Shown here: piece by piece, positions 29,541 through 40,861 of the stretch
Layout: each line of letters opens with the position of its first letter
Numbering within the stretch: position 1 is the first letter of the stretch
Origin: Bacteroidota bacterium
GTDB lineage: Bacteria; Bacteroidota; Bacteroidia; UKL13-3
Direction: 5' to 3'
NCBI GenBank assembly: GCA_046309355.1
Contig: JBKCPL010000031.1
Span: forward strand, 70,520 to 134,519
DNA: 64,000 nucleotides
Translations under genes and position numbers: made by a program
The notes under the pieces: generated by a model
Database searches by the model: none
What the model saw: only the letters and a program-made list of their open reading frames with translations
Told to the model about the DNA's origin: nothing

Positions 29541-30638
29541 ATGTCATTAAAATGCGGAATAGTAGGGTTACCTAATGTTGGGAAATCAACCTTGTTCAAT
29601 TGCTTATCCAATGCCAAGGCACAAGCTGCCAATTTCCCTTTTTGCACCATTGAACCCAATGTGGGTGTAATTACGGTTCCTGATGAGCGGCTGAATGAAT
29701 TAGCAAAATTGGTAACCCCTCAGCGAGTTGTACCTACTACCATAGAAATAGTGGACATTGCCGGATTGGTAAAAGGAGCCAGTAAAGGCGAAGGTTTAGG
29801 CAATCAATTTTTAGCCAACATTCGAGAAACCGATGCCATTTTGCATGTACTCAGATGTTTTGATAATGACAATATTATTCATGTGGATGGCTCTGTTGAT
29901 CCGGTAAGGGATAAAGAGATCATTGATACTGAGCTTCAACTAAAGGACTTAGATTCGGTAGAAAAAAAACTACAACGTGTATCACGTGCAGCTAAAACTG
30001 GCGATAAGGATGCCGCTAAGGCCGAAGCAGTTTTACTGAAATACAAGACCCAGCTGGAACAAGGTAAAAGTGCGCGAACGGTTGAGGTATCGGAAGATGA
30101 CAAGAAGCACATAGAAGATTTGCAGTTACTGACCATAAAGCCGGTATTGTACGTATGCAATGTGGATGAAGCATCCGTAGTAAATGGCAATAAATACGTA
30201 GATAAGGTACAACAAGCTATTCAGGATGAAAATGCAGGTCTGCTAATAATTAGTGCAGCAATCGAAGCCGATATCGCACAGCTTGAAAATTACGATGACC
30301 GTGTAGCGTTTCTGTCCGACTTAGGTTTAACCGAATCGGGTGTGGCCAAACTTATACGTGAAGCGTATGCATTGTTAAATCTGATAACCTATTTTACAGC
30401 AGGTGTTCAGGAAGTACGTGCATGGACCATTACACGGGGCATGAAAGCGCCTCAGGCTGCAGGTGTAATTCATACCGATTTTGAAAAAGGGTTTATACGT
30501 GCCGAAGTAATCTCATTCAATGATTATACCCGACTGGGCTCAGAAGCTGCCGTAAAAGAAGCCGGTAAAATGAGGGTTGAAGGAAAGGATTACATTGTAC
30601 TAGATGCTGATGTGATGCACTTTAGGTTTAACGTTTAA
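29541..30638 (+). CDS. ychF: Ribosome-binding ATPase YchF.
   Basis: [23 protein letters not shown]...[12 protein letters not shown] is the canonical YchF N-terminus. The C-terminus is a TGS domain. Confidence 0.95.
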
Positions 30639-33600
30639 TCCTGCACCACTTTATCTATTTCAGCAAGTATCTGTTTCTTCAAATCGTCAATTGAATTAGC
30701 CAGCAAGGCTGATTTCTTATCAAAGTCAACTGAGCGAATACGCATATTCAACACAAAGGTATCGCCATGTTTCTTGTAGGTACCGCTAAGCTTGTACGCC
30801 TCGGGAAAGTCTTTAACATCCAAAAATACCAGCGACCCGCCTTTAGCTCCTGAAACGCTTCTTTCGTTTAGCTCACCATCAATTAACTTACTTAAGCCGA
30901 GTTGGTCTTCCGACTCATCCACATCAATAAAAGTAGAACGTACAAACATAGGCTTGGCCTGCGCCAGCGGAATACTTGAACGAACGTCTTCGCTTACCTG
31001 ACCTATATCAAAACTTTCCGCTCCGTAAGGGCTGAATACTTTTGGCTCTTGTATTCCGCCAATACCTGCAGCTATTTGCGGAACACGCTCGCGGGCAAAA
31101 TTGAGCAAAGGCAATACGTCCACAAACTCACTCTCACGCAGCGATGCACCTTTTATACCCTGAAGCAACGAATAGGTGAGCAGACCTTGACCGTAACGTG
31201 AGGCCTCGTAACTTACTGCATCAGCAGCGCAACCAGTAATGATGTGTGTGCCCGTGCGGTCTTTTAAGCGATCGAGGGCTCGCAGTGCAGAAGAAGAAAT
31301 ATCGCGTTTAGAAACCAGATTATCTACCACCCTGCCCGATGCACATGCATCAATCATCATCACCTGTTTGAGTGCACGTATCTGTTTTAACTTTTCGGTG
31401 AGTTCACCCGATGAAATTCCGACTTTAGCTCTCAACTGAGGATCTGAATACGCTTCAGCCTGAGCTGAATGAGCAGTTTGTGTCAGGTAATAAAAATCTC
31501 CATCGGCACCCCCAATATTGATACCGTGGCCGCTCAAGTAAAGCAAAAACAAATCTTCCGGTTTAGCCTTTTGACTTACTTCATCAAGCACCTGAAGTAT
31601 TTGCTCCTTACCCGGCTTATAAGACGATGCAGTATCGGTTGTAATAAGATAGCCGAATACCTGCGAACGGTTAAATAATTTTGACGCTGATAAATTGATA
31701 GCCCTGTAAATATCTGTGGCATCTTTAGACGCATATCTTAAATCAATAGATGATCCTTCGTAGTCAGATGTCCCAATACATACCACATATACCGATGGCT
31801 TAACCACAGCATTGGTTACTGCCTGCTTCAGCGGAATGCGTGCACCCCTGCTCACTATGGTTTCATCTAAATTGTAAGCCCTCACCTCTATGTCATTACT
31901 TCCACCTTTAAGAAAAGGATAACTGGCAGTAGGGAGAACAAGGTACAACGAATCCGATGATTCACTCACTGACTGTGGCCTAATATCGGTGATTACCTCT
32001 TTTCCATTTATAAACATAGTTGCCTTGCCTATACCCCCACCCTGGTTGTACAAAGTGATTTTCAAATCACCATTTTGCTGCTCTGGATTCTGCCATTCAA
32101 GTTTAACTTTCGGGTATAATTTTACTTCTTCAAATGTGTTGACCTTTCGAGCTGCCTCTGCTGAAATACCCAAAACCTTTTGAAGCAGATTGGGCTCATA
32201 GTATTTGGATTTCAACTGTGACAATTCAATAATTTCATTTCCTGCAACATAGTACATGAGTTTCATGGCACCGGGAGAAGCATCAAACATTCCTCCGGGT
32301 GTTATAACAACCCAATCGGCAGAATCAATTGGATAGAAAGAAGCCATTGGTTGCGATGTATGAATATCCCAAAACTTAACACACTGATCAAATCCTGTAC
32401 TAACAACAAAACTGTTAAATCTGAAAAATCCGTTTGCCTGGCGTTTGTGTCCCGTATATCTGTTTTTCTCTGAAACGGTTTCTTTCAGCCACATAACGAT
32501 ATCTGCATTGGGTGCATTGCTTATAATATCGGTATTGTTTATCAATGCATCCCATATGTTATATTTCAGGTCAATAATTTGCGATGTAGCCGCAGCAGCA
32601 TCAATAGCTACAATGCTGGGATTAATCCCAAACGAATAAAATTTGCCGTTATCGTATCGTATTTTCTGTGCCCCATTGGTACGTTGTGCAGGGAAAATTT
32701 CCAAGCGCTTGGCGGTTTTAGCATCCCATAAAATTACGGTTGAATCAGTTGAACCGGTAGCTATATATTTTCCATCAGCAGAAAATGCTCCACAGGTAAC
32801 CATTGACCGATGAGCCGCAAGTGTAAAAAGACGTGCACCTGTTTTCAAATTCCATACAGCAGAGGTTCCATCTTTTGATGTAGTAAGCGCGAGCGAATCG
32901 TTCCATACATCAATATCCGTGATTATATCACTATGCCCTTTCAGTACGTTCATATACGTGCGGTCTGAGCGCTTAAACACATATACGTTCCCATCTCGGG
33001 AGCCTGAAAGAATTAAGTCGTTTCCTGAAAATTTTGCAGCCAGAAATTCGGATTGCCCTGCACGTCTTAATGAGCCTGTATGATTGATAATATTAAATAG
33101 CCTGATTTGATTGGTACGACCTGCAAAAATCAATTCGCCTGACTGGGCATGCATATCGGCCTCGTTAAAGTTGAAACTATATCCTCGTAACAAAGGTTTC
33201 GCATTGGTTCCATTAAAGCTGAACACAGCATTGCCTGAACTTAATATGGCTGCTGTTGGCATAACCGAAATGGCATCAGCCGAAAACGGGAGTGTAGCTA
33301 CACGTTGTGCTTTGGCATTATCCAGTAAAAAGATGTGGCCGCTTTTATTAATGGCATAAGTTAGGTTATTGAATACAAACACGGAAGCCGCATCTGTGAG
33401 TGTGCCGGCCGGCTGTTGTTTATTTTGCTGCAGGTCGTACTGTATCAACTCACCTTTAGCAGTGAGTAGCCATAGTGTATTTTTACGCAAAAATGCATGA
33501 ATAATTTTTTCCGGTAATTGAATTATACGCAGCGGTTCGGGTTGATTGATATCGCGTTCAATACATTTTCCTGTAATATCAACCGATATACATGTTGAAT

Positions 33601-34108
33601 TTCCTGTTGCAGCAAGCAGCACCACTTCATCGTAAGCTTCATAGTTACGCACAACTTCGCCAGTGGAAAGCGATACTGCCTGAATGCTTTTATCAGTAGC
33701 ATATGAAAGTAAAAATTTATTGTCGGCAGAAAGCGCCAATTTCTTCACTGCCCCCCGATGGTGAATGAATTCTTTGATGACCTGAGCGGTAGCAATGTTC
33801 CAAAGCTTAATGGTGTGATCGGCAGATGCACTGAAAAAGAATTTCCCATTGGCGGACACGGCCAGAGCGTGAACAGCATCCTCATGCTGTTCATAACTTC
33901 GTATTTCTTTTTTCTCGTTTACATTCCACAGCTTAATGGTTTTATCGCGGCTGGCAGTAAGCACATACTGATTATCGGACAAGGCTACAACATCGTGAAT
34001 AATACTGCTGTGGCCTAACGGCAATACCAGCTCAGGTTTTTGTGCGTAAGTGTTGTGCAAACACAAAAAGCACACTATGTACGATATGTACAGCCATTTA
34101 TTCAGCAC
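30635..34108 (-). CDS. Secreted 1157-aa multidomain protein with an N-terminal signal peptide, two WD40 beta-propeller regions and a C-terminal caspase-like (clan CD, C14-type) peptidase domain.
   Basis: The start is GTG. The signal peptide is [23 protein letters not shown]. More than ten WD repeats are present (TIKLWNV, TIKLWNI, SAVWNL, TVILWDA, CVKFWDI ...) across aa 35-590. The caspase block spans aa 772-1000. It begins [13 protein letters not shown], the catalytic His is in LYLSGHG (codon 31526..31528) and the catalytic Cys is in MMIDACASG (codon 31343..31345). Confidence 0.8.
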
Positions 34109-35711
34109 AATATACTTTTACTCCGTATTTGTCAATATATAACCACGTGTCGTCTTTACGAACCAGGCATAGCCCCTCTACAAAATCCAATATCTGATCG
34201 TATGTAGGCTCTACAATCTGCCGGTTGTTGCGATCGACAAGGCCCCATTTACCGCCCTTTTTAACTTTAGCTAAACCTTCAGCATTAAAGTCAGAAATGT
34301 CATCGTAAATTACAGGAATAACTACTTCGCCTTTGCGGTTTAATATGCCCCACATCTTATTGGCTCGCACACGAGCATAGTCCCCTTTAAAATCATAAGC
34401 ATTGTCGTATGTAATTGGAATGACTACGGTATTGCCTTTATTTACGTATCCGAACTTACCGTCTTTTTGCACCATAGCCAGCCCATTGTAGAAATTTTGT
34501 GCCTTCTCATATCCGGCAGCAATAAGCAGTTTACCGGTTTCATCCATAAATCCCCATTTGCCATTTTTAGCCTTTACGGGGTAAAGTACTTTTTGGTATT
34601 GCAACATAATTTTCTGCAACTTGGAAACATTCGGGTAGTTTTTGTATTTATTCAGGAATAGTGTTATAGTGCTTGTATCGCTGTAGTTGATTTCCATTTG
34701 CTCAATCATTTGCCAGGCATCTTTTACATAGCGGTTAGTTGGATACGACTGTATAAAATTGGAATAGGTTAAAGAGGTTTTTTCTCCTTTAATGGCAAGC
34801 AAATAAATCTGCTCCTCGGCTTGTGCTATGTAGGGACTTGTTGGATACTGATTGATAAAAAGCTGAAACTCTTCTATGGTTTTTCCTTTTGTTCTGGTCT
34901 CGTACAACATCTTTTCATATTTGCTTTTAGCTTCTGTCAAATACATGTTATCCGCACGTGTTCTAATAAACTCTTCAAACGCTTCCAGGGTGTTATCAAG
35001 TAAACACTTATCATATATTAAACGGTCAAATTTCTCTTTAGCTTCTTTGGCATACGGACTTTTTGGATGTTTCTTTGAGAATTCCAGATAGGAGTCGGGT
35101 TGCTTATCGTTGGTGTTTTCCTGATAAAACTTTAAATCATAATTGTCTTTTGCCGTTTTTGCTTCTGCTGCGTCCGGATATTTTTTAAGAAACTGATCAA
35201 AAGCAGCAGATGTGTTTTCCTTTTCTGCATCGGCAAAAGCCAGTGCATTTCGTTTTTGTAGCACTTCCGCTCTAAGGTGGGTTTCGTGAAATGAATTGAG
35301 GTATTGCTCAATTGCTGACAGAGTTCCTGTTCTTAATGCAATCGCATAGGCAGACTTTTCAATTTGTTCTTTGAGCGCTACAATTTCAGTTTCGCCTATT
35401 TGTACTGAACCCATTTCTTTTTTCATTGCCGAATTGGCATCACGGGCTGTCTGTTGTGCTTTGATGATAAATTCATATCCTTTTTCATAGTTAAATGCCG
35501 GATTATCTTCTGCTGCAAAATATCGGGCCATACCATACAAGGCTGCGGGATGTGCAGGGTAATCGGCCAATATGTCTTCAAGTATATCTTTTGCTTTTGT
35601 GTACTGTTTCTCATTTAGTAGCTTAATTCCCTTTTCTATTTTGGTGGCTGATACAGTCAGGGCTAAAATTGCCAATGCAAAGGCTAATGTAATTTTCTTG
35701 TATGCAATCAT
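34098..35711 (-). CDS. Secreted protein with N-terminal TPR-like helical repeats and C-terminal WG (KWG-type) beta repeats.
   Basis: The signal peptide is MIAYKKITLAFALAILALTVSA. At least five copies of a helical motif of about 38 aa are present, of the form ..F..F..KYP.S.Y...A. The C-terminus has at least four WG repeats (KWGFMDETGKLLI, KFGYVNKGNTVVIP, KMWGILNRKGEVVIP, KWGLVDRNNRQIVEP). Confidence 0.6.
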   Translation of the reverse strand: MIAYKKITLAFALAILALTVSATKIEKGIKLLNEKQYTKAKDILEDILADYPAHPAALYGMARYFAAEDNPAFNYEKGYEFIIKAQQTARDANSAMKKEMGSVQIGETEIVALKEQIEKSAYAIALRTGTLSAIEQYLNSFHETHLRAEVLQKRNALAFADAEKENTSAAFDQFLKKYPDAAEAKTAKDNYDLKFYQENTNDKQPDSYLEFSKKHPKSPYAKEAKEKFDRLIYDKCLLDNTLEAFEEFIRTRADNMYLTEAKSKYEKMLYETRTKGKTIEEFQLFINQYPTSPYIAQAEEQIYLLAIKGEKTSLTYSNFIQSYPTNRYVKDAWQMIEQMEINYSDTSTITLFLNKYKNYPNVSKLQKIMLQYQKVLYPVKAKNGKWGFMDETGKLLIAAGYEKAQNFYNGLAMVQKDGKFGYVNKGNTVVIPITYDNAYDFKGDYARVRANKMWGILNRKGEVVIPVIYDDISDFNAEGLAKVKKGGKWGLVDRNNRQIVEPTYDQILDFVEGLCLVRKDDTWLYIDKYGVKVYCAE

Positions 35712-35719
35712 AGGTAAAC

Positions 35720-37165
35720 TCAATATTCAATAACTATTTTATCTTTCGCATTTCCTTTAATGTTTGGATTTTGTTGCTGTCCGATGAGTCTTGCCTGGTA
35801 AGGCACTCCTGCATTGTGATCATTAACAAAATCATACACCTCATCCAGCGTTACTTTGTTGTCCGTATTTTTATCCGTTTTCTGCGGATTTTGCAAGGCT
35901 TTCAGAAAAAAGTATGTAAACATCCCATGCTGTTGTTCAGGGTACCAGTTAGCTGTTTCGTTGCTTGATGTTGCCGTAATAACAGCACCGTTTGGCAGCT
36001 CTACCTTGGTTTCTTCAACCGGAATACCCAGCGGACTGATATTTTCATAAATATTGCCTGAATAGCATGCATCGATAATAACTGTTGTAAATTTAGTTCT
36101 GATCTTAGCCAGATTTCCATAGAGCAACTCTGTTGGATATCCACCAAACTGAACGTTATTGGGCTTACACTCTACCGGCACCAGGTAGCTTTTTTTGTCG
36201 TACTGCGAGGGAGCTCCGTGTCCTGAATAATAAATGAACACTTCGGCATTGGGGTTTTTAACCAATTCATACAACTCAGCTTTGTAATTTTCACGTGTAC
36301 CGAATATGGCTTCAAAATCGCCTTTGGCTGCATTCTCCCGGTATATGACATTACCCGGCATAAAACCCATTACATCTACCAGGTATTTTTTAATCATAAC
36401 AGCATCATTAATTGCAAAATCAACATCCTTTCCTTTGATGTTTTTGTAATCCTTATTCCCAATAACCACTGCGTATGCATTTTCATTTTTACTTTTGGTT
36501 ACCGGAAGGTTTATATCAACATCTGAGTTCCCTACTGATATTACCTTAACTCGTTCGTTGATTTTTTGCACGTTGGAACTCAGATTAATATCAATGTTTC
36601 CGATATTAATGTCGAGTGCGGTTACGAAGTGATTCTGAACTGAACGGTCAAGCTGATACTCTGTATCCAGAAAAGGGTCTTTAATAACTAGGTCAGTCAC
36701 AGCAAACTCTTCACCTTGCAGTGTATACTTGATGTCATTAAAAATTAGTTCGTGCAAATTATCCTGAAAACTCTGAGCCTGCTCACCATGTGGAACTTTA
36801 ATAAGAAACGGCAGCATATTGGCTACTGTAATTTTATAGGTTTCATTTTCGCTGTCGTATACGGCATCAATTTTAGACCAGTCAATAACCTTTTCAGCTA
36901 TGGATGCAATTACAATCTGGGTGAATTCATCCACTTTACGCTGCTTGTTTTGCTTATCAACCCGCACCTGATATTCTTCCAGTTTTTCCATCGGATCTTT
37001 TTGTAACCACTCGGTAAGTTTAGCTTTCACGGTGGCTTCAATCTGCTCTGCATAAGTTGGTTTGTAGGTAACCATTATTTCGTTGCTGAACGCAACCTGT
37101 TTCTGCGCAAACACATGAAGTGTTAGCCAAATGAAACATACAACCAATAGTACTCCTTTTTTCAT
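35720..37165 (-). CDS. Secreted protein whose C-terminal half is a caspase-like (clan CD, C14-type) peptidase domain. The N-terminal domain is unknown.
   Basis: The signal peptide is MKKGVLLVVCFIWLTLHVFAQ, and a GGAGG Shine-Dalgarno sequence sits 5 nt upstream of the ATG at 37165. The caspase block begins YAVVIGNKDYK. The His is in FIYYSGHGAP (codon 36218..36220) and the Cys is in VIIDACYSG (codon 36065..36067). Confidence 0.75.
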   Translation of the reverse strand: MKKGVLLVVCFIWLTLHVFAQKQVAFSNEIMVTYKPTYAEQIEATVKAKLTEWLQKDPMEKLEEYQVRVDKQNKQRKVDEFTQIVIASIAEKVIDWSKIDAVYDSENETYKITVANMLPFLIKVPHGEQAQSFQDNLHELIFNDIKYTLQGEEFAVTDLVIKDPFLDTEYQLDRSVQNHFVTALDINIGNIDINLSSNVQKINERVKVISVGNSDVDINLPVTKSKNENAYAVVIGNKDYKNIKGKDVDFAINDAVMIKKYLVDVMGFMPGNVIYRENAAKGDFEAIFGTRENYKAELYELVKNPNAEVFIYYSGHGAPSQYDKKSYLVPVECKPNNVQFGGYPTELLYGNLAKIRTKFTTVIIDACYSGNIYENISPLGIPVEETKVELPNGAVITATSSNETANWYPEQQHGMFTYFFLKALQNPQKTDKNTDNKVTLDEVYDFVNDHNAGVPYQARLIGQQQNPNIKGNAKDKIVIEY

Positions 37166-37178
37166 ATTTACCTCCATT

Positions 37179-38186
37179 TTATTCTACTGAACAAGCGCAG
37201 CGGAAGCCAATGCTACCAAAGCTATTGCTCATATATTCAAAAAATTTATAGTTAAGCATCAACTCAAGCTCATCGCTGTATATCGAGCCACCTTTTACAG
37301 CTTTCTTATCCGGATCAGAAAGTTCTGCATCTTCGCACCATTCAGATGCATTGCCTGACATGTCGTAGATAAATAGCTCATTGGCCAATTTTGTTCCAAC
37401 GGTTCCCAAAAGTGTCAAATCAGCATTTTTAGTATACCATGCAATGTCACGAATAATATTACCGCCACTGTACACATAACCTCTACTGTACAGTCCACCA
37501 CGTGCTGCATATTCCCACTCAGCTGCCGAAGGCAGGCGCTTATTTTTCCACTTGCAATAGGCCTGCGCATCATTCCAAGAAACAAATACAACCGGTTCTT
37601 TCCATTCGTCTTGCTTTTTTACCTGTCCGTTAGGGTTGTTAAACCAACGGGCATTTTTGTTCAACTCCCACTTGTTGTTCTTAGTTCGTGCGTAAGCAGG
37701 CATCTTTTTCTCGGCATCTGTGGTGTAGCCTGTAGCCTTTACAAATTGCTCAAAATCTTTGTACGATACTTCGTACTGATCTATCCAATAGTCTTTTTTT
37801 ACCTGATTATTCTTTTCTGAGTCTGATGTTACGTAGATCATGCCCGATTTGTACTTAAGTGCTTCAACACGAATTTTCCCTTTGCTGTGGAACAGTGTAT
37901 CATTCAGGTAAGGATTCCATGAAAACTTCATATTGCCATGTGGCTTGATGTTATCTCCAACGTCTCCAATAGCATATTTCAACTCAAAGGTGATGGTATC
38001 TTTCTGACTGGGAACAAACCAGGCTCTTACTTTATACCTGCTGTTGGTATCGGTATCTTCCAGTGCATAACTCACCTCTATAATTCGCTGATCATCTTTT
38101 TGCGCAACCACATTTTTCAAAAACTCCTGTGCTTTCAAGAGTTCAGGTGCAATTAACAATGCTATATATACTATCGCGTATCTCAT
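37179..38186 (-). CDS. Secreted protein with an FGE-sulfatase (SUMF1/formylglycine-generating-enzyme fold) domain.
   Basis: The signal peptide is [20 protein letters not shown]. The C-terminal domain shows [16 protein letters not shown]...[15 protein letters not shown]...GNASEWCED...GGS...GFRCA, all conserved FGE-sulfatase blocks. Confidence 0.75.
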
Positions 38187-38190
38187 CTTT

Positions 38191-39135
38191 CTATCTTTCT
38201 ATAGTTATATCCTTATAATCAAAGGTACATTGTGCACTACCCATTTTCAGCTTATGTACCCAGCGCTGAAACTCTTCTGATTCCATATTCGAAGGTAACT
38301 TATATTTTTCAGTTGCAACTCCCGTATACAGGGTATTTGTGGAGGAAAGCATTGGGGATGGAATAGGTTGCTTAGAGAATATAACAAACATTCGCAACTG
38401 CTCCCTGTACTTACCATCGCTTACATATGCACTTATGTTATGAAACCCTGCATTCTCAAATACATTATTACGTGAACTAAAGAATAGATAGTCTTCGTTG
38501 GCATTTACCGGCATTCCGTTTTCAAATTCGGTTGATGCTTTGTCGTAAGGTAAAAGTCGATAACTTTTACCATCAAACATATCGTAATACACCATAAGGT
38601 AACCCGATTCGGGAGAGCGGAAATACAAATAGAACGGATCACCATGTTTGTAGACGGTTGCCTGGCAACGCCTAAACTCGTCCTCGCAGGGTGTAGGACG
38701 TGCAATAAAGTCTACTTTCGGTTCGGTTAGTTCCCTAACTCGTACTTTTAGTGTACATATTAACTCAACAATATCGGTTTTTTGACCTCCCAGTTTTACC
38801 GTTTGCCGTACTTCTTCAAATTGTTTATCGAGCACTTCCACTACTTCACCCTTTACAAATGTATTGGCTATGGTACTGAACATAGATTTTGTTTCGATGC
38901 GTGAACCGTTGTTGCTATTTTCTATGTAAGTAGAATTACCCTGTATAATAACCTTACCGAATGCTTTCTCAATGGCATTGACTGTAGCCAGTTCTTCGGT
39001 TTTATTTTCAGCCTCTAGTCTGCTTTCATTTCGAGTCCATTCTCGCTGTGCTGTACCTGTTACAACAGCTATATTTTGTGCATGTACATAATACGCCATG
39101 AATTCTATTACAAGAAGTAAACAAATTTTATGCAT
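38191..39135 (-). CDS. Hypothetical secreted protein.
   Basis: The ATG at 39135 gives the signal peptide [20 protein letters not shown]. There is no family I recognise. Gaps to both neighbouring genes are short. Confidence 0.45.
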
Positions 39136-39149
39136 GCTAGTGGAGTGTT

Positions 39150-39770
39150 TCAATTGAGCGTTAGAAGTTTATCGAGTTGTTCGCCTGTCAGTTTATTTGA
39201 AGGGCTGTTCGCAATAACTGATTTAGCAGCTTCTACAGTTTGTTTCAAGGGATAGCATACGTGAACACTCACTTCATAGGTATTGCCCTGCTGCCTGTAT
39301 ATTTTAAGTATCGGCTCAACATATCCAAGCCGTGTTGTTATGGTATTTTTGGTTTGCCTAACCAATTCACTAACCGATTGTAATTCGTCTTTCGCAATGC
39401 GGGCATTCGACAAATTGGCCTCCATGACTGAAATTAATGCCGACTCAATAAGACCGGCTACGGCTATTTTAGCAAATTCAACCGCTTGTGCCTCAGCTAC
39501 CGACTTTACATTGGCCGAAGCCTGTGCATCGGTAACTACATTTACAGACATTCCGCGCTCGTCTTTAAGGCGCTGTTTTTGCCAAACTGTACTAAGCTGC
39601 TCAGATAAAGGCAATGAGCCCGGGAAGGTAACCCAGCCTTCTTTTTCAAGTCGCTTCAACTCTTTCTTAAGTTCTTTTTGCTGAGCATCTGATTGTGCAT
39701 AGGACTCCTGAGTATTGAATACCAATAAACATAGCCATACTAGCTGAAATATATATTTTTTCATATTCAT
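39150..39770 (-). CDS. Hypothetical secreted protein, possibly LPP20-like.
   Basis: The internal ATG at 39770 gives MNMKKYIFQLVWLCLLVFNTQESYAQ. After a charged coiled-coil-like stretch comes an Ala/Val-rich amphipathic region (AEAQAVEFAKIAVAGLIESALISV). Confidence 0.4.
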   Translation of the reverse strand: MNMKKYIFQLVWLCLLVFNTQESYAQSDAQQKELKKELKRLEKEGWVTFPGSLPLSEQLSTVWQKQRLKDERGMSVNVVTDAQASANVKSVAEAQAVEFAKIAVAGLIESALISVMEANLSNARIAKDELQSVSELVRQTKNTITTRLGYVEPILKIYRQQGNTYEVSVHVCYPLKQTVEAAKSVIANSPSNKLTGEQLDKLLTLN

Positions 39771-39886
39771 GAATATAAACTGCGTCATCAATTTTTTACG
39801 AAGACGTAATGTATTGAATACCCGAAAATAACAATTCTTTCCTATTGGCAATAAAAAAAGAACCCACATTAAAAAGTCTTAATCTC

Positions 39887-40861
39887 TTAGCTGATTCGGT
39901 TCATCAAATCCATAGCACTGTTTACCAGCAATCTTTTCCGGTCTTGTGAAACAGATATTTTCTCTAATTTTTCAAATGCTGACTTCAGGTAATGCTCTTT
40001 GTGTGTTTCGCATACAGCTCGAATATCTAGTCTATTAAAAACATCTATCGTACCGTTAATTTTAGCAGCTAAGTCTGTAGAAAGCTGCCATCTGTCAAGC
40101 TCTTGATGGTCGTGCTCGGTTGCCCTGTTTCGGGCTTCTACCATGAGCAATGTTTTTTTATTGGCAGCAATATCGCCCCCGATTGTTTTGCCTACACTGG
40201 ACTCATCGCCAAATGTATCCAGCAAATCGTCCTGAATCTGAAATGCAATACCGATATTTTTTCCAAATTCATACATGCAACTAGCATCGTGAGTGGATGC
40301 TCCTGCTGTGATTGCTCCTAATTGCAAGGCAGCTCCCAACAATACGGCTGTTTTTAAAGTTATCATCTGTATGTACTCGTCTACGCTTACCTGTTCTCGT
40401 TGTTCAAAATCCATGTCGAGTTGCTGACCTTCGCATACCCCGATAGCAGCCGCATTGAATACCTTCAGCAATTCGGGAAACACTGCAGCATCTGACTGCG
40501 ACAGCAATTCAATGGCCTTTATCATCATCAAATCACCTGAAAGTATGGCAACAGTTTCGTTCCACTTCTTGTGTACGGTAGGCTTGCCTCTTCTCAATTC
40601 AGCTTTATCCATAATATCATCGTGAACCAAGGTGAAATTATGAAAAACTTCGACCGCTATGGACGTATGAAAAGCTTGCTCAGGCTTACCTCCAAAAAGG
40701 TCATTCGCCATCAATACAAGAACAGGCCTAAGGCGTTTGCCGCCTAGCGACATAAAATAATGTATAGGATCGTATAAGTTTGAAGGACTAGACCCAAAAT
40801 TGTATCCGGCTAAGCGTTCCTCTACTAGGGTTTGTATTTGGCGGTAAGATGTAAAGTGCAT
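39887..40861 (-). CDS. ispB: Polyprenyl diphosphate synthase of the IspB/octaprenyl-diphosphate synthase type.
   Basis: The first DDxxD motif is LVHDDIMDKAELRRGKPT and the second is FQIQDDLLD. Confidence 0.85.
   Translation of the reverse strand: MHFTSYRQIQTLVEERLAGYNFGSSPSNLYDPIHYFMSLGGKRLRPVLVLMANDLFGGKPEQAFHTSIAVEVFHNFTLVHDDIMDKAELRRGKPTVHKKWNETVAILSGDLMMIKAIELLSQSDAAVFPELLKVFNAAAIGVCEGQQLDMDFEQREQVSVDEYIQMITLKTAVLLGAALQLGAITAGASTHDASCMYEFGKNIGIAFQIQDDLLDTFGDESSVGKTIGGDIAANKKTLLMVEARNRATEHDHQELDRWQLSTDLAAKINGTIDVFNRLDIRAVCETHKEHYLKSAFEKLEKISVSQDRKRLLVNSAMDLMNRIS

Follow-up and report, generated by a model that had tools for sequence, protein, structure and literature searches.

What is the role of a compact bacterial operon that encodes two caspase-like proteases together with repeat and lectin-like proteins, when all its products look to be exported and none is an NTPase? 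The operon lies in a 64,000-nucleotide stretch of a Bacteroidota contig (JBKCPL010000031.1), which we call the window. Six ORFs, here g1 to g6, are all present and packed on the minus strand between 30635 and 39770, neighboring genes overlapping by 11 bp at most or standing up to 14 bp apart, according to the start codons chosen. This bears out the tight six-gene packing reported in a preliminary description, and the housekeeping genes that it placed on either side are also present, with ispB and trxA (and also dnaE) upstream and the convergent ychF downstream. The same description regarded the cluster as an accessory island and suggested examining gene order in related Bacteroidota. In relatives the order dnaE-trxA-ispB-[six genes]-ychF-pgm is retained with protein identities of 80-90%, and the GC content of the cluster is that of its flanks. 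The flank-like GC content and the shared slot therefore indicate that the cluster has been vertically inherited and is not a recent island, and that part of the description is set aside. Another locus (L012) carries a cassette that is 45-60% identical in a different genomic context.

The overall divergence of the cluster between relatives is similar to that of ispB. The most conserved product is g4 (93-99% identity) and the fastest evolving part is the WD40 region of g6 (65-82%), with dnaE and ychF at 89-96%. Purifying selection thus appears strongest at the caspase domains and weakest at the WD40 region. A terminator scan detected nothing terminator-like between ispB and g1, and the closest strong site of this kind lies downstream of trxA (40917-40890). 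The 116-bp spacer between ispB and g1 (39771..39886, minus strand) may contain the operon promoter, with read-through from ispB as the alternative. The promoter scan employed a sigma-70 consensus that is ill-suited to Bacteroidota promoters, and the spacer promoter is for this reason a candidate only.

The two proteases are encoded by g4 and g6. g4 (35720..37177, or with a start at 37165; minus strand; 481 or 485 aa) has a region of about 200 amino acids without domain assignment preceding a metacaspase-type Peptidase_C14 domain at residues 235-475 (E = 7e-18; PF00656 65.5 bits, cut-off 21.4). Its catalytic dyad lies in YSGH320G...DAC371YSG, with His320 encoded at 36218-36220 and Cys371 at 36065-36067, and the acidic S1 residues are Asp258 and Asp369. 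g6 (30635..34108, minus strand) has a GTG start and is 1157 amino acids long, a length called identically in orthologous contigs. One or more WD40 beta-propellers occupy approximately residues 23-600, with many WD40-type Pfam matches and propeller matches over about 23-480, and the Peptidase_C14 domain lies at 776-1026 (E = 7e-15; PF00656 55.7 bits). The g6 dyad is found in LSGH861G...DAC922ASG, with His861 at 31526-31528 and Cys922 at 31343-31345. The linker (600-770) and the 128-aa C-terminal region have no Pfam match at E <= 10. The preliminary description was correct in assigning intact dyads to two caspase-like domains. It had listed the WD40 repeats as a separate product, giving seven items for six genes, and here it was mistaken, as WD40 repeats and second caspase form the single protein g6. 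The family profile places both dyads on the catalytic His and Cys of metacaspases from plants (AtMC4 and AtMC9), yeast (Yca1) and trypanosomes (TbMCA2), and these columns are invariant in neighboring caspases (His 45/45, Cys 44/44). The acidic S1 residues are of the metacaspase type, and specificity for Arg/Lys is therefore predicted for g4 and g6.

Of the remaining products, g5 (34098..35723, or with a start at 35711; minus strand; 537 or 541 aa) has four C-terminal WG (KWG) beta repeats (WG_beta_rep E = 6e-47), preceded by helical repeats of TPR, BamD-like or YbgF-like character that give weak matches to TPR_14, TPR_19, YfiO and tol_pal_ybgF. It is presumably a binding module, and its earlier reading as a TPR-like plus WG-repeat protein stands. 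Of the profiles proposed for searching the cluster, Peptidase_C14, WD40, FGE-sulfatase and WG_beta_rep were all detected, with the TPR matches being weak. The FGE-sulfatase match is to g3 (37179..38186, minus strand, 335 aa), where the fold, which is C-type-lectin-like, spans residues 121-331 (PF03781 E = 4.7e-40, 138 bits). The top PDB match is 1y4j, which is pFGE/SUMF2, an inactive paralogue. Between KGGS and GFRCA there is no cysteine in g3, whereas active FGEs have CxxxxC at this position. Since the catalytic Cys pair is missing the FGE-sulfatase label holds for the fold and not for catalysis, and the domain is non-catalytic and lectin-like. Residues ~20-125 of g3 (37812-38129) form an N-terminal beta domain for which there is no Pfam model.

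Two products had been described as secreted partners of unknown type, which is only partly so. g1 (39150..39770, minus strand, 206 aa) has an Lpp20-like fold, and its predicted signal peptide and cleavage site are MNMKKYIFQLVWLCLLVFNTQESYA|Q. Some gene callers give a longer form of 239 amino acids starting at 39869; we rejected this as orthologues start at the internal Met at 39770, the start chosen previously. g2 (38191..39135, minus strand, 314 aa) comprises an N-terminal alpha/beta domain followed by a beta-sandwich related to DUF4384, the match to which is sub-threshold. The g2 family is uniform at ~300 aa; clustering at 50% identity divides it into about 1,000 groups, almost all of which come from Bacteroidota. 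It serves as the marker of the module described below, of which g1 is a core component. g2 has an alternative start codon.

All six proteins begin with a hydrophobic segment followed by a small-x-small site, with no later transmembrane segment, and the A|Q cleavage motif of Bacteroidetes is found in five of the six, matching the Q-rule for SPI substrates in that group (PMC5837995). The h-region of g2 contains a Glu and fails our heuristic, which 48/59 g2-like homologues pass. In related loci export-type N-termini are found in 29/29 g1-like proteins and 32/34 caspases, compared with 0/15 of the adjacent sigma/anti-sigma proteins. The heuristic also flags 15/43 other ORFs in the window, a background of 35%, and its calls are therefore supportive of export rather than proof. 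Further support comes from the resemblance of g5 to the periplasmic TPR proteins BamD and YbgF, and from partner proteins in relatives that include lipoproteins, an OMP-like protein ending in GxGxxF and T9SS cargo. No Por_Secre_tail domain or lipobox was found in the six proteins. They thus look to be exported without a T9SS sorting domain or lipid anchor, in agreement with the preliminary description.

We have counted gene linkage in same-strand blocks around g2 in 60 species-level loci. These blocks also contain a caspase in 33/60, g1 in 28/60 and proteins with the g3 N-terminal domain in 21/60, together with SBBP-type propellers (23/60), Kelch repeats (9/60) and an ECF sigma/anti-sigma pair (8/60). 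The 27/60 loci with no caspase in the block include many short contigs. Twenty-one partner proteins encoded beside a caspase gene share the N-terminal domain of g3, and their C-termini are either FGE or OMP-like. The binding modules (WD40, WG, TPR, Kelch, SBBP and the lectin-like FGE fold) vary between loci and are often fused to the protease, giving WG-caspase, WD40-caspase, TPR-caspase and caspase-FGE proteins; in one g1/g2-linked locus (L040) WG repeats are joined directly to caspase domains. Where the ECF pair is present it stands at the head of the operon, and its anti-sigma-like member is a single-pass protein with a periplasmic domain of ~125 aa. The module is widespread in Bacteroidota.

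There is no NTPase within the cluster, as originally stated, and none recurs in the 60 related loci. Walker-A motifs occur in 12/317 flanking ORFs of those loci, none recurrent, and the same-strand blocks lack any Walker-A family. The preliminary description had allowed that orthologous clusters might lie beside a cytoplasmic STAND NTPase, making this an ordinary conflict system; no such NTPase was seen in the 60 loci. The NTP-dependent conflict systems (STAND, vWA-MoxR and GAP1 ternary; Kaur, Burroughs, Iyer & Aravind 2020, PMC7159879) share caspase, FGS/FGE, WD40 and TPR domains with the cluster and also combine variable parts around a constant core, but they are cytoplasmic and are defined by their NTPase core. 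Unlike them, the cluster has no EAD or Death-like adaptor and no DGR.

Neither PADLOC nor NCBIfam places the cluster in a described system, with PADLOC giving a generic caspase match. The earlier statement that it matches nothing described holds to that extent, but its ingredients have been seen before. A 2012 survey of prokaryotic metacaspases (Asplund-Samuelsson et al., PMC3501461) listed fusions to WD40, TPR or FGE-sulfatase domains, some of them with possible signal peptides. That survey and another (Klemencic & Funk 2018, PMC5756287) describe the same C14 domain, His/Cys dyad, acidic S1 residues and accessory domains, and noted Bacteroidetes multi-metacaspase operons, possible signal peptides and a link to sigma-factor operons. 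They did not define a core of g1, g2 and the g3 N-terminal domain, establish export or assign function. The studied orthocaspases such as Microcystis MaOC1 are cytoplasmic, whereas the proteins in the window look exported. Genomic island 15 of Psychroflexus torquis (Feng et al. 2014, PMC3914696) contains several WD40-metacaspases with CHASE2 proteins, several flagged with signal peptides. It is thus also a Bacteroidota metacaspase cluster, but it spans 35 kb, was acquired horizontally and is bordered by transposases and tRNA genes, whereas our operon is compact (9 kb) and has a stable position in the core genome. The core and its role are undescribed in the 2012 and 2014 accounts. The Lpp20 operon of Helicobacter pylori (HP1454, HP1456, HP1457; Lpp20/FlgP family) has no protease, and unlike that family g1 has no lipobox and no sequence-level match to Pfam LPP20. 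The gingipains of Porphyromonas, also a member of the Bacteroidota, are exported cysteine proteases of clan CD that have Arg/Lys specificity at P1 and carry Ig-like accessory domains. They belong to family C25, have a T9SS C-terminal domain (CTD) and act at the cell surface, whereas the proteases here are C14 and lack a CTD.

We therefore favor, with a probability of about 0.55, the view that Bacteroidota possess a conserved extracytoplasmic module built on caspase homologues and free of NTPases, and that the cluster is one of its configurations. The core of the module would comprise g1 with its Lpp20 fold, the beta-rich DUF4384-related g2, the g3 N-terminal beta domain (joined in other species to an OMP-like beta-barrel) and at least one metacaspase-type C14 protease, around which ligand-binding modules would be swapped between species. 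In the window the swapped parts would be the double-propeller-sized WD40 region fused to the g6 caspase, the WG and TPR repeats of g5, and the lectin-like FGE domain of g3. All six proteins would cross the inner membrane via Sec and signal peptidase I, and g1, g2 and the g3 N-terminal domain might then assemble into a scaffold on the periplasmic side of the envelope, rather than at the cell surface. The repeat and lectin modules would bind a protein or glycan ligand, either recruiting it to the two proteases or activating them, leading to limited periplasmic proteolysis. In relatives with the ECF pair at the operon head the module is probably controlled by an envelope signal, or feeds into one. 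The cluster itself has no outer membrane-anchored partner, lipoprotein or ECF pair, and envelope anchoring and signaling are consequently extrapolated from the relatives.

If the N-terminal segments were uncleaved, or the starts miscalled, this might instead be a cytoplasmic or inner-membrane orthocaspase cluster as in cyanobacteria. The background of the heuristic, the GTG start of g6, the alternative starts of g2 and g5, and the inability of the 2012 survey to separate N-terminal transmembrane helices from signal peptides (PMC3501461) are consistent with this. Yet the n-h-c layout and small-x-small site are present in all six proteins and in ~80-100% of the homologues of every core family, and a Gln frequently follows the site, in keeping with the Q-rule. 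The envelope partners in relatives and the absence of a cytoplasmic partner argue likewise, and DUF4384 and FGE-sulfatase are alternative C-terminal domains, together with a transmembrane region, in one bacterial Ser/Thr kinase family. We regard a cytoplasmic location as highly improbable.

For an exported module two other roles may be considered, each of which we think unlikely. The preliminary description conjectured roles in envelope stress or in defense against predators or phages, for which gene context offers a single hint, the ECF pair heading eight related operons. The module could be a housekeeping protease that processes or quality-controls envelope proteins, or it could serve an ECF sigma/anti-sigma pathway reporting on envelope or surface signals, as its site-1-type protease or as its regulon. 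This would fit the ECF pair in the eight loci, a histidine kinase and response regulator beside the module in L004 and L052, the recurrence of sigma-70/metacaspase operons in Myxococcus, Fibrobacter and others (PMC3501461), inheritance between core genes and strong purifying selection on the catalytic domains. But the window and most related loci lack the sigma/anti-sigma pair, and wide swapping of binding modules would be odd in a fixed maturation pathway. Moreover the marker family is patchy, being found in 62 species representatives among those scanned, and the module is thus not universal housekeeping. Swapping of sensor-like modules around a constant core would suit envelope-level immunity. 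In this reading the variable modules (WD40, Kelch, SBBP, WG, TPR and lectin) would serve as pattern receptors in the periplasm, detecting components of phages, toxins of T6SS or bacteriocin type, or proteins of predators, and the caspases would destroy the invader or, abortively, the cell's own envelope proteins. The module would then parallel the STAND-caspase systems, with the same domain vocabulary (PMC7159879), but would work in the periplasm and independently of ATP, and the lack of an NTPase would be logical in a compartment that has no ATP. The rapid evolution of the WD40 region (65% identity, where housekeeping genes have ~90%) also agrees. Against it, the PADLOC match is generic, the cluster has normal GC content, is present in single copy and keeps a stable, syntenic location, and it diverges overall as ispB does. 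We saw no toxin/effector, mobile-element or defense-island neighbors and no DGR or hypervariable repeat in the cluster, and viral contigs contain no member of the g2 family.

Whichever role the extracytoplasmic module plays, its marker is found in other company as well. In four to five loci g2 adjoins unrelated CheR and arginine deiminase genes, and it may therefore also act alone.

Six co-directional open reading frames lie on the minus strand between window positions 30635 and 39770, and these are numbered from g1 (first) to g6 (last). They encode g1 (39150-39770; 206 aa), g2 (38191-39135; 314 aa), g3 (37179-38186; 335 aa), g4 (35720-37165, or 37177; 481 or 485 aa), g5 (34098-35711, or 35723; 537 or 541 aa) and g6 (30635-34108; 1157 aa, with a GTG start). 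The genes are as tightly packed as had been claimed in the preliminary description, with junctions ranging from an 11-bp overlap to a 14-bp gap, and the housekeeping flanks are also as it placed them. Upstream of g1 is ispB (39887-40861), followed further upstream by trxA and dnaE, while the convergent ychF lies downstream with a 4-bp overlap with the 3' end of g6 (30635-30638). A terminator-like hairpin was sought at the 3' ends of g6 and ychF and detected for neither gene, and a consensus scan of the ispB-g1 interval revealed no terminator, with the closest strong site lying 3' to trxA. The g1 reading frame continues upstream (39771-39869) to an in-frame ATG at 39869, and the resulting 239-aa form is present in public gene calls (P0084). 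This is probably a miscall, because orthologues of 204-206 aa begin at the internal methionine, which is followed by the signal peptide.

Identical copies of the cluster with the same flanks are present on metagenome contigs, and the order dnaE-trxA-ispB-[six genes]-ychF-pgm is kept in two relatives that have 80% and 90% identity in g1. From this conserved order and flanking context we infer that the cluster is vertically inherited in this lineage. It had been described as an accessory island, but a recent island is unsupported since the cluster does not differ in GC content (0.38-0.45) from its flanks and its position is syntenic in relatives. The sequence identity to the same two relatives is 93-99% for the caspase domain of g4 and 88-95% for that of g6, compared with 89-96% for dnaE, 91-96% for ychF and 71-81% for ispB, and falls to 65-82% in the WD40 region of g6. 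These values point to strong constraint on the proteases, with the weakest on the binding propeller.

Both g4 and g6 contain a Peptidase_C14 domain (PF00656), scoring 65.5 bits over residues 235-475 of g4 and 55.7 bits over residues 776-1026 of g6, against a cut-off of 21.4. Pfam and NCBIfam matches to a WD40 propeller extend over residues ~23-480 of g6; these repeats had been ascribed to a third product, but they form the N-terminal half of the second caspase protein. The His/Cys dyad lies within the motifs YSGH320G and DAC371YSG in g4, and LSGH861G and DAC922ASG in g6. Searched singly against the PDB with phmmer the two caspase domains returned nothing, and a family profile was needed for matches. 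This profile, made from 27 domains of the cluster and related loci (alignment A4), matches the plant metacaspases AtMC4 (6w8s) and AtMC9, yeast Yca1, T. brucei MCA2 (TbMCA2) and MALT1. In the profile alignment YSGHG and DxCxSG pair with the His and Cys motifs of AtMC4, AtMC9, Yca1 and TbMCA2, in full accord with the original assignment of clan CD peptidase domains with intact dyads. Moreover, the catalytic columns are invariant among the caspases that neighbor g2 homologues (His in 45/45 and Cys in 44/44).

Two further aspartates are invariant in alignment A4. These are D33 within an N-D-x motif and D144 two residues before the cysteine, corresponding to D258 and D369 in g4, and D796 and D920 in g6. 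In solved metacaspase structures the aspartates at these positions line the S1 pocket, giving specificity for Arg or Lys at P1. Because both S1-pocket aspartates are invariant we predict that g4 and g6 would be specific for Arg or Lys, and not Asp. The two caspase domains are ~20% identical and give no mutual tblastn match at E ≤ 1e-3, and they are paralogues of ancient divergence, not products of a recent duplication. Three regions have no Pfam match at E ≤ 10, comprising residues 26-230 of g4 (36488-37102) and residues 600-775 (31784-32311) and 1030-1157 (30638-31021) of g6. All are conserved in orthologues, with 92-93% identity at the g6 C-terminus.

The predicted N-termini of all six products have a short basic n-region, a hydrophobic h-region and a small-x-small site, with predicted cleavage at SYA|Q, VHA|Q, LKA|Q, VFA|Q, VSA|T and TYA|Q. 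The glutamine at +1 in five of the six fits the Q-rule for signal peptidase I substrates in Bacteroidetes (PMC5837995). Our export heuristic is crude, as it also flags 15 of the 43 remaining ORFs of the window and fails g2 itself, which has a glutamate in the h-region. Within related loci it is positive for all 29 g1-like proteins, 32 of 34 caspases and 48 of 59 g2-like proteins, and for none of 15 adjoining sigma and anti-sigma proteins. The contention that everything is exported is thus supported by export-type N-termini in all six products, and a cytoplasmic location of the products is unlikely. There is no later transmembrane segment in any of the six, and neither a lipobox nor a Por_Secre_tail sorting domain of the type IX secretion system (T9SS) was detected, as had been noted earlier; the Pfam-negative C-terminus of g6 is included in this.

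The predicted structure of g1 has the three-dimensional fold of Lpp20. Pfam LPP20 gives no match to it even at E ≤ 10, Pfam and NCBIfam are otherwise blank, and its predicted cleavage (SYA|Q) is of signal peptidase I type rather than that of a lipoprotein. The match of g2 to DUF4384 (PF14326) scores 21 bits, below the gathering cut-off of 27; one cluster of g2 homologues (P0046) carries a precomputed DUF4384 domain, and the model is passed at 31 bits by a 512-aa neighbor in the related locus L010. The predicted model of g2 (pLDDT 81) comprises an α/β N-terminal domain and a generic β-sandwich, for which Foldseek found no significant structural neighbor in the PDB. Kinship between this N-terminal domain and g1 is unsupported (hhalign probability 17%). 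The C-terminal domain in one bacterial Ser/Thr kinase family can be either DUF4384 or FGE-sulfatase. The g5 protein has four WG repeats, together with a TPR-like region weakly resembling the periplasmic proteins BamD and YbgF.

The assignment of g3 as an FGE-sulfatase protein holds for the fold (PF03781, 138 bits, E = 4.7e-40) and fails for the catalytic cysteine pair. Its PDB matches include FGE and pFGE, the best being the inactive paralogue pFGE/SUMF2, and there is no cysteine where active FGEs have a CxxxxC pair before the C-terminal GFRCA motif. With these cysteines missing and no sulfatase in the cluster, we rejected an active FGE modifying a sulfatase, and judged from its sequence the domain is a lectin-like binding fold and not an enzyme. 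The T9SS and gliding lipoproteins GldK/PorK and GldJ also have the FGE fold. Neither is a candidate for g3, which scores 54 against a cut-off of 350 for TIGR03525 and 20.7 against 458 for TIGR03524, and has no lipobox. A lectin diversified by a DGR was similarly discarded, as no part of the cluster is repeated elsewhere in the 64-kb window that could constitute a template/variable repeat pair, and other DGR features are likewise absent. The N-terminal domain of g3 has no Pfam match, and its profile gave a single weak match in a set of 5.8 billion proteins, a scarcity probably due to the word filter.

The g2 protein provides a marker for related loci. Its family is uniform at ~300 aa, with 83 clusters at 90% identity, and a profile search yielded 1076 clusters (50% identity) at E ≤ 1e-3, 578 of them at E ≤ 1e-30. 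Where organisms are named they are almost all Bacteroidota and mostly MAGs, with complete chromosomes from Pontibacter sp. G13 and Bacteroidetes bacterium UKL13-3, both culturable carriers; none was found in the viral contigs scanned. Using the g2 profile we gathered 62 species-representative loci, called ORFs and clustered the same-strand blocks containing g2, which were obtained for 60. These blocks contain a C14 caspase in 33 loci, g1 in 28, SBBP-type β-propeller proteins in 23, Kelch lipoproteins in nine, and an ECF sigma factor with a single-pass anti-sigma-like protein in eight. The BLAST family F4 that holds g3 is present in 21, although this clustering also brings in Fib_succ_major lipoproteins. 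Families F8-F10 and F12 beside g2 are unrelated housekeeping proteins (epimerase, CheR, arginine deiminase and oxidoreductase) and were rejected as parts of the module. The full six-gene order occurs only in L012 (45-60% identity, with other flanks) and in close relatives.

The g3 N-terminal domain, ~100 aa long, recurs in 21 partner proteins, all but a few of them in family F4. What follows it is an FGE-sulfatase fold in some and, in the others, a region of ~170 aa that ends ...GxGxxF, of a kind typical of outer-membrane barrels. Proteins of ~280-291 aa directly 3' to the caspase gene (L052:12702-13553, and also in L053, L054, L055, L057, L058, L071, L024 and L035) combine the g3 N-terminal domain with a C-terminus ending ...GxGxxF and a weak OMP_b-brl match. 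They look like an outer-membrane-anchored partner that is absent from the window cluster. Elsewhere the caspase is fused to WG repeats (L040), WD40 (L037, L043 and L069), TPR and CARDB Ig-like domains (L003, L039, L024 and L066) or an FGE domain (L010). Thus, for each accessory module in the window cluster there is a locus of the family in which it is covalently joined to the protease, and such fusions provide strong evidence for functional coupling.

The sigma and anti-sigma-like pair forms the head of the operon. In eight species (L024:6387-9191, and likewise L022, L035, L061, L062, L064, L067 and L069) the operon opens with the ECF sigma factor, the anti-sigma-like protein and a ~490-aa exported protein before g1 and g2. 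The anti-sigma-like protein has a single transmembrane segment at ~81-100 and a ~125-aa periplasmic domain. Another common variant ends, after a Kelch lipoprotein, with a T9SS cargo of 1300-2100 aa containing DUF7948/PKD_6 and Por_Secre_tail (L004:14623-19686 and L052:14539-20904), so that some members of the family reach the cell surface.

NTP-dependent caspase conflict systems (STAND, vWA-MoxR and GAP1) have a core P-loop or AAA+ NTPase and cytoplasmic components, and the window cluster has neither. Those described by Kaur et al. draw on the same domain repertoire but are founded on cytoplasmic NTPases (PMC7159879). By Pfam and NCBIfam none of the six proteins has an NTPase domain, and no Walker-A family is present in the same-strand blocks of the 60 loci. 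A Walker-A motif occurs in 12 of 317 flanking ORFs, none recurrent and all ≤ 566 aa, so that the earlier observation that no NTPase is present extends to the related loci. The caspases score 59-72 bits against a cut-off of 140 for NF047832 (caspase_w_EACC1), and no effector-associated or EACC1-type adaptor domain was detected in the six products. PADLOC matches were limited to a generic sub-family caspase and HEAT, giving no grounds for a known defence system.

The six-gene exported caspase cluster is thus real. The sequence data support a metacaspase-type module that is exported and lacks an NTPase, in which binding modules are exchanged around a conserved, scaffold-like core comprising g1, g2 and the g3 N-terminal domain. 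Such a module most probably acts by limited proteolysis, dependent on a ligand, on the periplasmic side of the envelope, and in part of the family this would have a regulatory tie to ECF signalling. Among the roles that this may serve we place modest and roughly equal weights on surveillance or defence on the one hand and on envelope signalling or maturation on the other. In its most specific form, the former would be a periplasmic, ATP-independent device of innate immunity, in which the propeller, repeat and lectin modules would recognize foreign proteins or glycans in the envelope (from phage, T6SS effectors, bacteriocins or predators) and activate scaffolded caspase homologues specific for Arg or Lys. 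We consider this rather unlikely; if true, it would be an extracytoplasmic counterpart of caspase activation by the apoptosome or NLRs.

The bacterial caspase homologues studied experimentally are mainly cytoplasmic, including orthocaspases, the CHAT proteases of CRISPR type III-E and gasdermin-activating proteases. We found no functional study of an exported homologue in the literature, and searches that included ECF with Peptidase_C14, Lpp20 with caspase, and periplasmic orthocaspase revealed no definition of the core of g1, g2 and the g3 N-terminal domain. The statement that the cluster matches no described system was nevertheless too strong, as it belongs to the known class of prokaryotic metacaspase operons (PMC3501461, PMC3914696). 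The catalogue of 2012 lists fusions of prokaryotic metacaspases with WD40, TPR and FGE-sulfatase, and records N-terminal helices that 'might be signal peptides', Bacteroidetes operons containing several metacaspases, and operons of sigma factors with metacaspases (PMC3501461). A paper of 2014 described a 35-kb island of Psychroflexus torquis that has four WD40-metacaspases along with CHASE2 proteins and genes bearing signal peptides (PMC3914696), and the accessory domains of cyanobacterial orthocaspases include DUF4384 (PMC7475262). The cluster is notable for its conserved extracytoplasmic core, which had not previously been delineated. Together with the g2 family of roughly 1,000 clusters it presents a compact genetic unit, in which caspase-type proteases accompany scaffold-like and ligand-binding proteins outside the cytoplasm without an NTPase. 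This raises the testable question of how a caspase homologue is controlled without ATP, and of its substrates in the envelope, for which the recurrent link to ECF sigma and anti-sigma factors is a possible experimental read-out.

Some loci depart from the general pattern. In four to five Bacteroidales MAGs (L031-L034 and L068, around 10001) g2 stands alone beside genes for a CheR-type methyltransferase and arginine deiminase, with no caspase or g1 within 10 kb, and g2 may therefore act independently of the protease. L010 (8611-17753) has, over both strands, a g1 homologue with a CHASE2 protein, an 880-aa SBBP-like protein, a 402-aa caspase, the 512-aa DUF4384 protein and a caspase-FGE-sulfatase fusion. 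Lastly, L015 (2596-9978) has two tandem g1 paralogues preceded by same-strand genes of 392, 1064 and 457 aa, whose sizes alone suggest an efflux trio of RND type.
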